The notes: generated from the letters alone by a model not told the origin. 29,487 nucleotides of DNA from Verrucomicrobiales bacterium (GCA_023253575.1 JALRGB010000124.1:1-29487), one strand, 5' to 3'. Shown: positions 118 through 22,568, numbered from the stretch's first letter. Made by a program: numbers and translations.

Positions 118-216
118 AGCCGCCAGGGAACCGCGACAAATCCGGACTGGTTACCGTTGCTTCCTCTCGGACCTGGCGGGGTTGGCCGGCCGAAAATCCG
201 CGGCCCCTGACGGGAG
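118..216 (-). ncRNA. ffs: Signal recognition particle RNA (small bacterial SRP / 4.5S RNA)
   Basis: The minus strand reads CCCCGCCAGGTCCGAGAGGAAGCAACGG, the conserved SRP domain IV core (GNRA loop GAGA). It is closed by a terminal helix CCGTCAGGGGCCGCGGA / TCGCGGTTCCCTGGCGG. Ends are approximate. Confidence 0.9.
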
Positions 217-14678: not shown

Positions 14679-15422
14679 CTACCAGAGCCCCCACTGGCGG
14701 GTCATCATGATGTATAATCCAAGCAAAAAATTGGATGTTGCGTGCATAATGACGCACGCTCCTAGGCTGCGTGTGCGCACGGCCACCAGACTGACCAGCA
14801 GCGACCACAGCAGGCAGACAGCGTAATCTGACGGTTGATGCGCTGTCATCATGAGGACCGAAGTCAGTCCAATGACCCGCAGGTTTTTGACGCCCATCGG
14901 CACCCGCTCCCAGTTTCCCCCCGCCGACGCCAGATACCTCCAAAGAAACCCGCGCCAGAAGAGTTCCTCCACAAAAGCGACCGCCACCGTCATCCGTAGA
15001 AACCGCACCACCACCGACGTCCACCACGCCGCCGAACCGTCCGGGAAAATTCCAGGGTCAAATCCCGGCTCCGAACGGTCAACCACACCCAGCCATTTGA
15101 TGACCTGACCGGTCTGCGTGTGCCACCAGCTTGGCAGAATCCAGAACGCAATTCCCACGGCCCCGGTCGCCACGCCCCAAAACCACGCTTTTACCCCCAG
15201 TGGGCGAAAGGAATAGTGGCGCCACCAAAAGGCCAGCATACCTAGGCAGGCCAGCGTTTGCAGGGGATAGACCCACTGCTGCGGCTGCCTCCGCCACCAG
15301 GGAGCATCCGGATGTTTCCACTCCAGCCCCGGCACCGAGGTCAGCAGCATCAGCCCCATAAAAACAAATAACGGCGCCACGTGGGCCACCGCCTTATTGG
15401 ATCGCAGGGCAGTGAGTGTCAT
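14679..15422 (-). CDS. CAAX prenyl protease-related (CPBP) protein resembling the PEP-CTERM-associated type
   Basis: HVAPLFVF, WVYPLQTL, FVEELFWRG, H..HATSN motifs. Alternative TTG start at 15473 overlaps the aminotransferase stop. Confidence 0.85.
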   Translation of the reverse strand: MTLTALRSNKAVAHVAPLFVFMGLMLLTSVPGLEWKHPDAPWWRRQPQQWVYPLQTLACLGMLAFWWRHYSFRPLGVKAWFWGVATGAVGIAFWILPSWWHTQTGQVIKWLGVVDRSEPGFDPGIFPDGSAAWWTSVVVRFLRMTVAVAFVEELFWRGFLWRYLASAGGNWERVPMGVKNLRVIGLTSVLMMTAHQPSDYAVCLLWSLLVSLVAVRTRSLGACVIMHATSNFLLGLYIMMTRQWGLW

Positions 15423-15469
15423 CAGATTAAATGGACTGGCAAAAGCATGGAAACGGATACCCGGTCCGC

Positions 15470-16675
15470 TCAAGCCGCCCGGTCCCCCGCCGCCGATTCA
15501 CTTTTCAAACCACTCACAAAACGAGCCATCCGCTCAAGAGCAATCTCAAGCTGGGGCATCGCCGTCGCATAACACGCACGCACAAAGCCTTCACCCGATT
15601 GACCAAAAGCACTCCCAGGCACCACCGCCACACTCTGCTCGTTGACTAGCCGCATCGAGAATTCCTTGCTGGTCAATCCCGTCGGACGAATGTCCGCAAA
15701 AACATAGAAAGCGCCACCCGGACGAAACGTCGGCAACCCCATGGCATTCAGCCGCGTCACTATCACGTTCATCCGCTGCTCATAACTCTGACGCATCATC
15801 TCCACTGCCGGTGCCCCGTTTTCCAACGCCTCAATGGCCGCCCGCTGACTCATGATCGGCGCACACAACATCGCATACTGGTGCACCTTCATCATCGCCT
15901 CAATAATTTCCGCCGGAGCACACGCATAACCCAATCGCCAGCCAGTCATGGCGTAAGCCTTGGAAAAACCATGAAAAAGCACCGTCCGCTCCTTCATTCC
16001 AGCAAACGTGAGAATGCTGACATGCTGGCGACCGTCATAGAGCAGCTCCGTGTAAATTTCGTCCGTGAAAACAATCAGATCATGCTGGACCGCCAGCGCC
16101 GCAATCTTCTCCAACTCTTCCACCGGCTCAAAGGCCCCGGTCGGATTCGTCGGGAAATTCAACATGATGACCTTGGTCCGCGGAGTGATCGCCTTCTCAA
16201 CATCGCTGGCGCGAAGCACAAAATCATCCTCGGGCCGGGTGTGGATCGGCACCGGCACCCCCCCAGCCATAAAAATGGTCGGGTTGTAGCTCACATAACA
16301 CGGCTCATGGTAAATCACCTCGTCCCCAGGATTCAACAGCGCCCGAAAAGCAATGTCCAACGCCTCGCTGACCCCCACCGTAACAATGATCTCCTTCGCC
16401 GGATCATACTGGGTCGCACAATGACCCCGAATATAGCCCGAAATCGCCTTGCGCAGCGGCAGCAATCCCAAATTAGAGGTGTAACACGTCTCCCCCTTCT
16501 CCAAAGCGAATATCGCCGCCTCCCGGATATGCCACGGTGTCGAAAAATCAGGCTCGCCCACCCCCAGCGAAATCACATCGCCGCGGCTTTGAACCAGTTC
16601 AAAAAAGTCCCGGATGCCGGAACGGGGGATTTCGCGGATGCGCTCCGCCACTTTGGAGGAAAGAGATGATGACAT
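15470..16675 (-). CDS. PLP-dependent class I/II aminotransferase, YugH/AlaT-like
   Basis: SGIRDFF, VISLGVGEPDF, YTSNLGL, NFPTNPTG, DEIY, GFSKAYAMTGWRLGY (PLP Lys). The N-terminus closely follows B. subtilis YugH as I recall it. Confidence 0.92.
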   Translation of the reverse strand: MSSSLSSKVAERIREIPRSGIRDFFELVQSRGDVISLGVGEPDFSTPWHIREAAIFALEKGETCYTSNLGLLPLRKAISGYIRGHCATQYDPAKEIIVTVGVSEALDIAFRALLNPGDEVIYHEPCYVSYNPTIFMAGGVPVPIHTRPEDDFVLRASDVEKAITPRTKVIMLNFPTNPTGAFEPVEELEKIAALAVQHDLIVFTDEIYTELLYDGRQHVSILTFAGMKERTVLFHGFSKAYAMTGWRLGYACAPAEIIEAMMKVHQYAMLCAPIMSQRAAIEALENGAPAVEMMRQSYEQRMNVIVTRLNAMGLPTFRPGGAFYVFADIRPTGLTSKEFSMRLVNEQSVAVVPGSAFGQSGEGFVRACYATAMPQLEIALERMARFVSGLKSESAAGDRAA

Positions 16676-16737
16676 GAAAACGAATGAGTGAAAAAACTGA
16701 ACGAGTGCGGGTATACGGACTGGGAGGGTCGGATATT

Positions 16738-16827
16738 TCAGGCTGCCTGCGCAGCCCGTCTAGCTCGCGCCGCTACAGTCAGCGGGCGGCAGCGGTCATC
16801 GTTCAGCATGGACACGTCACAATTCAT
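16738..16827 (-). CDS. Putative Ala-rich leader peptide MNCDVSMLNDDRCRPLTVAARARRAAQAA (or 23 aa from ATG 16809)
   Basis: Short ORF ending 62 nt upstream of the aminotransferase start; 7 of the last 11 codons are Ala. Confidence 0.45.
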   Translation of the reverse strand: MNCDVSMLNDDRCRPLTVAARARRAAQAA

Positions 16828-16890
16828 GGAATGATCTGGAAAGCGGCAGAAAATACCGGGCTTTGGCGATTTGTCGCGTGCGAAGATTCG

Positions 16891-16919
16891 TTGCCTCGCC
16901 ACCATCCAGCCCGCACAAT
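16891..16919 (+). promoter_or_regulatory. Candidate sigma70 promoter for the ABC exporter (TTGCCT-N17-CACAAT)
   Basis: Hexamers at 16891-16896 and 16914-16919 with 17-nt spacing. Confidence 0.45.
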
Positions 16920-16986
16920 TCTCCGGGAGCATAAACCACCGCGCCCACCGCCCCTCATCACGGACGCCAGCCCCCTACTCAACCCC

Positions 16987-18873
16987 ATGTCCACTCCGCG
17001 CCCCGCCGCCTCGTGGCGCTCGTCGCGCCAAATCTACCAGCAGTTCCGGCACGACCTGAAACATCCTCCCACCACCGACCCCCCAACCACAACGGCCACA
17101 GCCGCCACGCCGTCCACCACCCGTCGCGAGAATTTCCGCGCCTACCTAAAGGTCGTCTTCCTCTTCCGCTGGCAAATCGCTGCCATCCTCGGCCTCGCCG
17201 TCGTCGTTTCAGTCCTCGAAGTCTACCAGCCACGCCTGATCGGCGAGGCCATCGACCAAATCCTACAAAATCCGGCTCTCTCCACCGCCGAGAAAAACCG
17301 CCAGCTCCTCCACATCGTGCTCATGCTGCTAGGCATGGTGGTCATAGCCCGGGCGCTTGATTCATGGCGCGATTACCGGACCCACCGGCTCAACGCCCGT
17401 GTCCTCTCGCGCCTGCGACGGCTGCTCTACGGCCACCTCCTTCGTTTCCCGCTGGCCCGCATCCACGACCTCAAAACCGGCGGCATCGTCTCGCGGTTAA
17501 CCGGCGATCTGGAAGCGCTGACCGGTCTGGTTCAAATGGCATTTATCTCGCCCCTCGTGGCCGTGCTGCGCGTCGGGTTCGCCTTCTTCATCGTCTGGCA
17601 GTGGAATCCACGGCTCGCCCTCATCCTCGTCTGCCTACTCGGCCCCATGGCTTTCGCCTCGTTCCTCTGGATCGGCCCCATCCGCCAGGTCTGGCACTTC
17701 TACTTCAAACGCAAAGGAGAACTAGACTCGCGCATCAGCGAAACATTCGGCGGCGTGCGCGTCGTGCGCGCCTTCCAACGCGAAAATGCCGAGGAATTAC
17801 GCTATGCCGCCAGCCAGCACGCCCTCGCCCGCCTCAACCTGCATGCCGTCCGCTACACCAGCATCGTCCACATCCTCTGGAGCGTGCTCATCCCTCTGGC
17901 CAATGTCGCCGTCCTCTTCTTCGGTGGTCGCATGCTCTTCGACGGCACCGCCAGCATCGGCCAAATCACCGGCATGATGGGGTTCACCGGCATGCTCATG
18001 GGCCCCGTCTACATGATCGTCCAAACCTTCGGAGACCTGCAAAAAAGCCTCGCCGCCGTAGACCGCGTCTTCGATCACCTCCGCGAACCAGATGAACTCA
18101 ACGACCCGCCCAATGCCGTGGACGCACCTTCCATCGTGCGCGAAATCACTTTCGAGGCGGTTGATTTTAGCTACTCCGACGATCGCAAAATCATCCACGA
18201 TTTCTCGCTGGTCGTACCCGCCGGATCCACTGTGGCCCTCGTCGGCGCCAGCGGTGCCGGCAAAACCACCATCGCCGATCTCGTCGCCCGGTTCTACCGT
18301 CCCACCAACGGCCACATCCGCCTCAATGGCATCCCGCTGGAAAACATCCGACTCCACAGCTACCGCCGCCTGCTCGGCATCGTCAGCCAAGATACATTTC
18401 TGTTCGATGGCACCATCGCCGAAAATCTGGCCTACGGCCGACCCAAGGCCACCCGCGAGGAAATCATCGCCGCCGCCCGCCAGGCCCATGCCGACGAATT
18501 CATCGCCGACCTGCCCCAAGGATATGACACCCCGATCGGAGAACGCGGCACCCGCCTCTCCGGCGGCCAGCGCCAGCGGCTCAGCATCGCCCGCGCCATC
18601 GTCGCCGATCCACAAATCCTCATCCTCGACGAAGCCACCAGCGCCCTCGACACCCACAGCGAACGCCTCATCCAAGAAGCCTTAGAAAAACTCGAGGTCG
18701 GCCGCACCACCTTCACCATCGCGCACCGCCTCAGCACCATCGCCCGCGCCGAAATCATCGCCGTCCTCGACAAAGGCCGCCTCGTCGAATGCGGGACCCA
18801 TGCCGCCCTGATGGAAATGCGCGGCCGGTATTGGCACATGGTTGAACAACAACGCGAAGGCTTAGGTGACTAA
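16987..18873 (+). CDS. ABC exporter, fused permease and ATPase (MsbA-like half transporter)
   Basis: TM domain, then Walker A GASGAGKT, signature LSGGQ, Walker B ILILDEAT and IAHRLS. Start inferred at ATG 16987. Confidence 0.93.
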   Translation: MSTPRPAASWRSSRQIYQQFRHDLKHPPTTDPPTTTATAATPSTTRRENFRAYLKVVFLFRWQIAAILGLAVVVSVLEVYQPRLIGEAIDQILQNPALSTAEKNRQLLHIVLMLLGMVVIARALDSWRDYRTHRLNARVLSRLRRLLYGHLLRFPLARIHDLKTGGIVSRLTGDLEALTGLVQMAFISPLVAVLRVGFAFFIVWQWNPRLALILVCLLGPMAFASFLWIGPIRQVWHFYFKRKGELDSRISETFGGVRVVRAFQRENAEELRYAASQHALARLNLHAVRYTSIVHILWSVLIPLANVAVLFFGGRMLFDGTASIGQITGMMGFTGMLMGPVYMIVQTFGDLQKSLAAVDRVFDHLREPDELNDPPNAVDAPSIVREITFEAVDFSYSDDRKIIHDFSLVVPAGSTVALVGASGAGKTTIADLVARFYRPTNGHIRLNGIPLENIRLHSYRRLLGIVSQDTFLFDGTIAENLAYGRPKATREEIIAAARQAHADEFIADLPQGYDTPIGERGTRLSGGQRQRLSIARAIVADPQILILDEATSALDTHSERLIQEALEKLEVGRTTFTIAHRLSTIARAEIIAVLDKGRLVECGTHAALMEMRGRYWHMVEQQREGLGD

Positions 18874-22491: not shown

Positions 22492-22568
22492 GGAGCGGTA
22501 GCTCAGTTGGTTAGAGCGCAGCCCTGTCACGGCTGAGGTCGCGGGTTCGAGCCCCGTCCGCTCCGCCA
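22492..22568 (+). tRNA. tRNA-Asp (GTC)
   Basis: 77-nt cloverleaf: acceptor GGAGCGG/CCGCTCC, anticodon arm CAGCC-CTGTCAC-GGCTG, T-loop GTTCGAG, encoded CCA. Confidence 0.98.

Follow-up and report, generated by a model that had tools for sequence, protein, structure and literature searches.

In the his, trp, thr and leu attenuators, a short leader open reading frame (ORF) enriched in the codons of one amino acid stands before a biosynthetic gene, and in the translational attenuation of erm and cat a leader ORF acts together with an RNA fold in which the start of the next gene is hidden, the position of the ribosome deciding the fold. In the coat-replicase interaction of MS2 (the Min Jou interaction), upstream codons pair over a long range with the downstream initiation region, which is opened by upstream translation, and in translational OFF riboswitches it is the P1 helix that sequesters the start site. 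We know of no leader-ORF attenuator for alanine, and the cis-regulatory RNAs of Verrucomicrobiota are, to our knowledge, almost unexplored. For the polycysteine small ORFs (sORFs) of mycobacteria it is reported that ribosomes which stall within the Cys tract block the RNA structure by which the ribosome-binding site further downstream is sequestered (Canestrari et al., bioRxiv 10.1101/834739).

Here we describe the 5′ leader of an aminotransferase (AT) operon from a Verrucomicrobiales bacterium (the window, that is, the whole stretch of DNA analysed, comprises 29,487 nt). This leader is a real, conserved and previously undescribed cis-regulatory element, and we propose, with about even confidence, that it is a lineage-specific translational control leader (a translational attenuator). 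The genes and the elements from which the leader is transcribed are as follows.

14679..15473, minus strand: gene for a CPBP/Rce1-like intramembrane protease, overlapping the AT stop by 4 nt
15470..16675, minus strand: gene for a class I/II PLP aminotransferase (AT) of 401 aa, AlaT/YugH-like by best family match
16673..16843, minus strand: the whole 5′ leader RNA of the AT operon, ~170 nt, matched by covariance model R1 with 136 bits
16738..16827, minus strand: leader ORF (29 codons and a TGA stop) whose tail is rich in Ala and Arg, supported by its sequence and by conservation in 17 leaders
16850..16877, minus strand: promoter-like element with a −35 GCGACA (16877-16872), a 16-nt spacer and a −10 TATTTT (16855-16850)

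The window also holds a bacterial small SRP RNA (52 bits, 118-212, minus strand) and a tRNA gene (71 bits, 22492-22565, plus strand).

The leader ORF, its transcript and its fold

The intergenic gap upstream of AT spans 311 bp (16676-16986) and reaches to a divergent gene for an MsbA-like ABC transporter (~16987). On the minus strand it contains an ORF (ATG at 16827, TGA at 16740-16738) with the product MNCDVSMLNDDRCRPLTVAARARRAAQAA*, which stops 62 nt before the AT start (16675). Seven of its last 11 codons (codons 19-29: GCG GCG CGA GCT AGA CGG GCT GCG CAG GCA GCC) encode Ala, with all four Ala codons in use, and the Arg codons among them are CGA, AGA and CGG; CGA and AGA are used 7.6 and 1.9 times per 1000 codons in this genome, and CGA is called rare. 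The ORF had been picked out from the sequence in an earlier note, and its composition and position, the gap of ~310 bp and the GGCTGC/GCAGCC hairpin are all as described there. That description came with the caution that GC-rich DNA and the hairpin inflate the number of GCN codons. The six frames of this 3.6-Mb, 60%-GC genome hold 598 runs with 7 or more Ala in 11 codons (0.17 per kb), and hence the Ala run by itself is not significant. What lies above chance is the recurrence of the ORF together with its RNA context in every orthologous leader of the clade. A 64-codon extension of the frame (ATG at 16932) begins 5′ of the likely transcription start, and its upstream ATGs are not conserved.

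The promoter-like element is kept as GCGACA-16 nt-TAnnnT in most of the aligned leaders and in L142, the most divergent one, at a distance of 13-22 nt upstream of the ORF; it is not evident in L122, and in a simple promoter scan it scores below threshold. A metatranscriptome contig (X15) spans 16416-16843 and ends 7 nt after the −10, with the next X15 contig beginning at 16880, which is consistent with an AT transcription start that likely lies near 16843 and thus upstream of the ORF, as an attenuator of the kind suggested in the earlier note would demand. The evidence is not unanimous and is suggestive only, since a contig from another run (X18) spans this gap and with it the promoter region. 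With this start, the leader ORF has a 5′ UTR of 16 nt and is not leaderless. On the opposite strand, a contig of the divergent ABC transporter mRNA starts at 16880 (plus strand, 16880-16987 in the window) and implies a 5′ UTR of ~107 nt, which fits back-to-back divergent promoters whose start sites lie within ~36 bp of that of AT. Inside the AT coding region, ~50 nt after its start, there is a terminator-like hairpin followed by a T-run (16607-16623, minus strand), which could be due to chance (0.3 expected in shuffles) or could be a pause or termination site relevant to a Rho/polarity model.

We collected 17 leaders, of which 14-15 are distinct, all from one genus-level clade of Verrucomicrobiales in which the AT proteins are at least 82-83% and up to 100% identical. 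A same-frame ORF of 26-29 codons is present in all 17, its ATG is always in a CATG context, and the peptide tails follow the pattern A-R-A-[RSN]-[RLQ]-A-[AV], with 4-7 Ala among the last 11 codons. The distance from the ATG to an invariant CGAGCT is 60 nt in most leaders, 54 nt in L006 and 63 nt in L122, and the length changes within the ORF are multiples of three only, an argument that is built on two to three events. The stop is a TGA at the foot of the hairpin P3 (see below) in most leaders and lies within the P3 loop in L119, L121, L122 and L142, and indels in this loop that are not multiples of three are found only behind a relocated stop (L119, L122). The first 40 nt of L142 are unrelated to those of the other leaders, yet its ATG stands exactly 60 nt before CGAGCT and its 26-codon frame is open to the stop in the P3 loop. 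The ATG of L142 is not paired with the AT AUG, and hence the conservation of this ATG cannot be put down to pairing alone. The expectation that an Ala-rich upstream ORF would be found before orthologous genes therefore holds for the Ala-rich tail, start, frame and stop in all leaders of the clade but not for remoter orthologs, as no such ORF precedes any of 56 metagenomic homologs with 53-64% identity, where the best cases have 4 Ala in 11 codons and are the C-termini of upstream genes.

The elements of the predicted fold, in the order in which they are transcribed, are as follows.

16799..16828, minus strand: 5′ strands of the masking helices, equal to ORF codons 1-10, from the fold and covariation; P0 CAUGAA (16828-16823), P0b GUGAcGUG (16820-16813) and P1 CUGAACGA (16806-16799)
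16769..16790, minus strand: hairpin P2 with a GCCG/CGGC base and an apical part that is variable in sequence and fixed in length
16759..16768, minus strand: junction J2/3, GCGAGCUAGA, predicted to be unpaired in the consensus
16739..16758, minus strand: hairpin P3, CGGGCUGC-GCAG-GCAGCCUG, containing four Ala codons and overlapping the UGA stop
16705..16737, minus strand: spacer J3/1, pyrimidine-rich and G-poor, with a CCUCCC box (16728-16722)
16673..16704, minus strand: 3′ strands of the masking helices, with long-range pairs in 17 of 17 leaders and compensatory changes; P1 UCGUUCAG (16704-16697), then a U-run, P0b CAC-UCAU (16690-16684; CAC-UCAy across leaders) and P0 UUCAUG (16678-16673), which contains the AT start codon

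Folding each leader independently gave a common architecture in all 17 cases, in which P0, P0b and P1 are stacked and enclose P2 and P3, and through these three long-range helices the first 10 codons of the ORF are base-paired to the 30 nt that end with the AT start codon. The fold has a z-score of −3.4 for the leader in the window and −5.1 for L142, and each of the 17 leaders has 20-29 long-range pairs compared with 4-9 in shuffles. In a sequence-only MAFFT alignment, 89% of cells are paired, compared with 33-43% when the partners are slid, and compensatory changes occur in nine pairs compared with 3.1 in shuffles (0 of 500 shuffles). The model-fitted alignment, which leans towards structure, has 92% of cells paired and 15 compensatory pairs compared with 4.7 in shuffles. 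The compensatory changes fall in P0b and P1, among others, and the G-U pairs are compatible with the AT sense strand only. In 16 of the 17 leaders, the AT AUG has an in silico probability of no more than 0.26 of being unpaired, and L142 has an entirely different 16-bp long-range helix at the same place that ends 13 nt before the AUG. A duplex predicted from these comparisons thus sequesters the AT initiation region.

Within the enclosed junction, 97% of the cells in P3 are paired, with compensatory U-A to C-G changes in three leaders and one strand-specific G-U pair. P3 and its G-U pair were also considered, by eye only, as T-box-like, tRNA-like or AlaRS-minihelix-like, and these readings were dropped because the G-U varies (it is A-U or G-C in some leaders) and no UGGN/ACCA logic was seen. 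The CGAGCU core of J2/3 is invariant in all leaders and is followed mostly by A, with C in L117, L134 and L006; in the ORF frame it reads Arg (the rare CGA)-Ala (GCU)-AGN and is invariant at all three codon positions. The length of the spacer J3/1 ranges between 26 and 38 nt, with increments other than multiples of three, and from the end of P3 to the AT start codon the leaders average 38% C and 13% G, with a C/G ratio of 2-5 in nearly all of them. Leaders L134 and L117 are identical except for a 9-nt duplication of a CCCCTCCCG unit in J3/1, and hence this region tolerates indels. By comparative analysis, then, the leader contains a conserved structured domain with covariation and with invariant positions that are predicted to be unpaired.

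Conservation within the ORF lacks codon periodicity, as the entropy is 0.52, 0.60 and 0.62 at codon positions 1, 2 and 3, and it is 0.87, 0.89 and 0.89 when only unpaired sites are counted, likewise with no relaxation at the third position. It follows that selection does not act on the peptide itself, and RNA pairing accounts for most of the conserved bases in these alignments. Synonymous variation in the Ala run had been put forward as a test in the earlier note; the substitutions observed obey pairing, such that a C-G to U-G change turns Ala into Val and a G-U to A-U change turns Arg into Gln. The Ala codons are located in P3 and in the 3′ strand of P2 and are largely by-products of GC-rich helices, in that helices of the GCNGC type are read in one of three frames. 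Conservation of the peptide does not go beyond what the RNA imposes, and we rejected an arrest peptide as the main reading, since a sequence-specific arrest peptide is unlikely when the peptide as such is not selected. For the unpaired CGAGCUA, with its invariant core, contact with a ligand or a protein would be more typical than a coding constraint.

That the frame is open in the variable part of the ORF is uninformative, as stops are few in any frame. Shine-Dalgarno (SD) enrichment is absent upstream of 1526 long ORFs in the whole genome (10.2% compared with 10.5% in shuffled sequence), a C precedes the start codon (position −1) at 48% of the starts, and both the leader AUG and the AT AUG have this C. 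The organism seems to initiate without SD pairing, and for this reason a missing SD sequence is no argument against translation of the ORF. Taken from sequence comparison, the kept ATG (including that of L142), the fixed 3n length, the stop that relocates and the SD-less genome with C at −1 suggest that the ORF is translated, and we lean towards this conclusion.

The aminotransferase module and its Lrp gene

AlaT (YugH) is the main alanine-forming transaminase of Bacillus subtilis (bioRxiv 10.1101/562850), and the enzyme encoded here had been called AlaT-like. This name agrees with the best NCBIfam match (PRK07682), although the score of 526 bits is below the cut-off of 620 and, among solved structures, the nearest are Pyrococcus enzymes with the names of aromatic and aspartate aminotransferases. 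The specificity of the enzyme is uncertain, and "AlaT-like" is a reasonable lead from sequence rather than an assignment. AT orthologs occur once per genome in a protein search of 40 relatives. The CPBP gene, of the PEP-CTERM-associated type (TIGR03008, just above cut-off), is probably in the same operon as AT, and it lies 3′ of AT in most related loci with listed gene tables, an unexplained conserved pair.

Outside the genus, upstream DNA could be read at 22 loci (57-81% identity), and in all of them AT is preceded by a co-directional Lrp/AsnC gene; it ends up to ~130 nt and mostly less than 65 nt before AT, and it is likewise upstream of AT in the metagenomic loci L128 and L129. In the nearest sister genera the order is phosphofructokinase-Lrp-AT, and the CPBP gene follows AT in related loci. 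Within the genus and its metagenomic relatives (AT identity down to ~82-83%), there is no Lrp gene at the locus and the promoter-like element and the leader are found instead. The earlier note had remarked on the absence of AlaR, which is correct for the locus but not for the genome, as an Lrp ortholog that is 72% identical to that of the sister genera is kept on another contig in all five genus genomes searched, including this one. The relocated gene is seen at G000:C436:3827-4303 (locus L139) and L140:394-1980, 18 nt behind a phosphofructokinase gene. Two contigs with an Lrp gene and a 500-nt gap before an 82%-identical AT might represent an intermediate state. The neighbours upstream of the leader vary (ABC transporter, PIN toxin, glyoxalase and others), and the promoter, the leader and AT, with the CPBP gene where downstream sequence is present, form one unit across the loci.

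Searches with model R1 covered 38 genomes of the family and 151 of the order. There was one match per genome in 6 of 6 genus genomes and none in 32 other genomes of the family, and in the ~145 order genomes outside the genus there was nothing but one weak partial match (24 bits, E 0.03) in a neighbouring genus. No Rfam 15 family matches the leader at its gathering threshold, and a search relaxed to E of 10 gives nothing but noise. The element hence does not recur before related genes in several lineages, being present as one copy, before one gene, in one genus. An origin from a repeat or mobile element was rejected, as the core motif is single-copy in the genome and the model matches once per genome, and so was the idea that the leader is a relic of the lost Lrp gene, as it has no nucleotide similarity to the Lrp loci of this and the sister genera. 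A crude scan of the genome for other leader ORFs with cognate codons gave 91 candidate rows, and none of the nine loci chosen from them precedes an amino-acid biosynthesis gene, so it lends no support to a habit of leader-peptide attenuation here. A Cys-rich mini-ORF (MICM..CCICW.SIMS) occurs in near-identical copies in G000:C9 (L146) and G000:C107 (L147), ~115 nt upstream of unrelated genes for a Mala_s_1-like protein and an RNase R homolog, and is probably a short repeated element. A Phe-rich mini-ORF of 10 codons (MGRFFRYFFD; G000:C624, L150:1-300) ends 51 nt before a gene for a LivJ-like periplasmic amino-acid-binding protein.

Proposed translational control and its alternatives

In the mechanism that we propose, transcription would begin near 16843 and the ~170-nt leader would fold such that P0, P0b and P1 pair ORF codons ~1-10 with the AT AUG region and close over the junction of P2 and P3, by which the start codons of both the leader ORF and AT would be buried. 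The leader AUG would be made ~150 nt before its pairing partner, and co-transcriptional loading of ribosomes would thus be possible. Ribosomes on the first third of the ORF would keep the AT initiation region single-stranded, either by opening it directly or by queuing behind a ribosome that is slowed in the Ala/Arg-rich, rare-codon tail and obstructed by P3, and the mask would close when the ORF is quickly cleared. This proposal draws on the structure, the masking geometry, the conservation of the frame, length and stop of the ORF, the distribution in the clade and the replaced Lrp adjacency, all obtained here; translation of the ORF, dwell time as the signal and the content of that signal, for which charged tRNA-Ala is one candidate, are what we infer from them.

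As would be expected of an attenuator, one strand of the duplex lies within the leader ORF (codons 1-10), and when codons 1-11 are held single-stranded in silico, the AT initiation region is open throughout. With codons 12-35 occupied by a ribosome, the same kind of calculation keeps the masking helices in place at −20 kcal/mol, and therefore a stall in the Ala tract could act only via queuing or steric exclusion. Direct control through the stalling on Ala codons that had been envisaged for this locus is not borne out, as the Ala/Arg tract (codons 19-29) is not the masking strand and is not so positioned that a stalled ribosome would itself block the duplex. Whether the leader might sense alanine at all is a separate matter, and we consider it unlikely. 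The same doubt attaches to the full scenario of a first alanine-responsive, ribosome-mediated attenuator, in which a de novo ORF would report charged tRNA-Ala through the dwell time in its Ala-rich, rare-codon tail, would thereby open the long-range masking helix and would functionally replace the Lrp/AlaR regulator adjacent to AT in sister genera.

The main rival to translational attenuation is a riboswitch-like or protein-bound operator, a tentative reading to which we give appreciable but clearly minor weight. The P1/P2/P3 junction, the CGAGCUA and the CCUCCC box would bind a protein or a metabolite (alanine, pyruvate, glutamate, 2-oxoglutarate and PLP are candidate ligands), binding would stabilise the helices that bury the AT start, and the ORF would be an incidental reading of the anti-start-codon strand and of GC-rich helices. 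Much of what is described above would be expected of such an operator, including a multi-helix fold with covariation, junction bases that are invariant and unpaired even at third codon positions, the lack of codon periodicity and substitutions that follow pairing rules rather than amino-acid conservation. Moreover, the conserved CAUG pairs with the CAUG of AT in 16 of 17 leaders, which would explain the ATG without any translation. Less readily accommodated are the restriction to one copy per genome, one gene and one genus with no Rfam match, and the fact that L142 keeps the ATG, the 60-nt spacing and the open frame although its ATG is outside the masking helix, and an operator leaves unexplained why indels within the ORF are 3n only whereas length varies freely behind it. 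If the ORF is translated, control could also be Rho-dependent and of the tnaC type, although we regard this as improbable. By pausing at the Ala/Arg-rich end of the ORF or at its stop, a ribosome would shield the C-rich, G-poor spacer from Rho, and its quick departure would allow Rho to load and to terminate transcription in the untranslated, masked AT gene. The stretch that separates the ORF from AT suits this in its composition, having 38% C, 13% G and a C/G ratio of 2-5 in nearly all leaders, as does an ORF end that is always at or inside P3, directly before the C-rich tract, with a stop that relocates and is never lost. However, the tract is short, as the AT AUG follows after ~50-70 nt, and half of it is paired because it forms the 3′ strand of the masking helices; SD-less initiation would be just as good a reason to expect a single strand rich in pyrimidines.

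Attenuation of transcription in the classical his/trp manner, where a stall on Ala codons would select an antiterminator over an intrinsic terminator, was the model favoured in the earlier note, and a conserved leader ORF with 4-7 Ala in its last 11 codons and a GTTCAG followed by a T-run in ~8 of 12 leaders seem at first to speak for it. A terminator scan found no hairpin between the ORF and the gene, however, and the T-run follows the long-range helix that closes a multi-branch domain of ~100 nt and is absent in L003, L005, L119 and L124. A mutually exclusive antiterminator pairing was not found, all sequences having one common fold, and the remoter orthologs are without the Ala-rich upstream ORF. 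As there is neither a terminator nor an alternative antiterminator, we reject this type of attenuation as extremely improbable. It is also very improbable that there is no switch here, merely a constitutive structured 5′ UTR (a stability element or a fixed damping of translation) that carries a chance ORF. The Ala run is indeed ordinary for this genome and the openness of the frame is weak evidence, but selection has preserved the fold by way of many compensatory changes and, in L142, across a complete turnover of the sequence, and the element appeared exactly where the Lrp adjacency was lost, which argues for a regulatory role.

The locus is in effect a natural experiment, in which the same AT-CPBP module stands behind an Lrp gene in the sister genera and behind a newly evolved promoter and leader in one genus. 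It could show how a cis-acting RNA/ribosome device replaces a linked transcription factor, and how a start codon is masked in an organism that does not use SD sequences, and if alanine or another metabolite were the signal, the leader would represent a new class of sensor. As the element is compact (~170 nt) and fully defined by comparative data, reporter tests are directly feasible.

Comparison with known systems

The leader has features in common with each of the systems described at the outset. As in the his, trp, thr and leu attenuators, there is a short leader ORF rich in the codons of one amino acid, but here there is no terminator/antiterminator pair and the codon tract falls on helices under selection as RNA. 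With erm and cat it shares the combination of a leader ORF and a fold that conceals the start of the next gene, and it differs from them in having no antibiotic context, no conserved arrest peptide and no alternative pairing of four segments. Like translational OFF riboswitches, the leader has a multi-helix junction with unpaired bases that are invariant, closed by a helix in which the start codon is hidden; unlike these, it is found at one gene in one genus, belongs to no Rfam family and has a frame-conserved ORF inside it. The AlaR-AlaT-like arrangement, in which Lrp/AsnC adjoins AT, is that of the 22 out-of-genus loci and of L128 and L129, whereas this genus keeps its Lrp gene at another locus, behind phosphofructokinase, and AT has its own promoter and leader.

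In its geometry the leader is closest to the MS2 coat-replicase interaction, as codons of an upstream ORF pair with the AT initiation region; it is distinguished from it by the nature of the upstream ORF, here a 29-codon leader without a conserved peptide, by a helix that buries the leader's own AUG too, and by the conserved junction with invariant bases between the two strands. Among analogues demonstrated by experiment, the polycysteine sORF attenuator is the closest. The two have in common a short ORF, rich in the codons of one amino acid, upstream of a gene, and an RNA duplex that sequesters the downstream ribosome-binding region and with which ribosomes on the short ORF compete (here, as proposed). 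The gene downstream of a polycysteine sORF belongs to the metabolism of the amino acid in question, and AT is AlaT-like by family match only. In contrast to the mycobacterial case, the leader ORF is not leaderless, the dependence on Ala is a candidate only, the element does not define a regulon because it is present at a single locus, and the masking strand is followed by the Ala tract only at a distance of 25-60 nt, whereas a ribosome stalled among the Cys codons blocks the sequestering structure directly.
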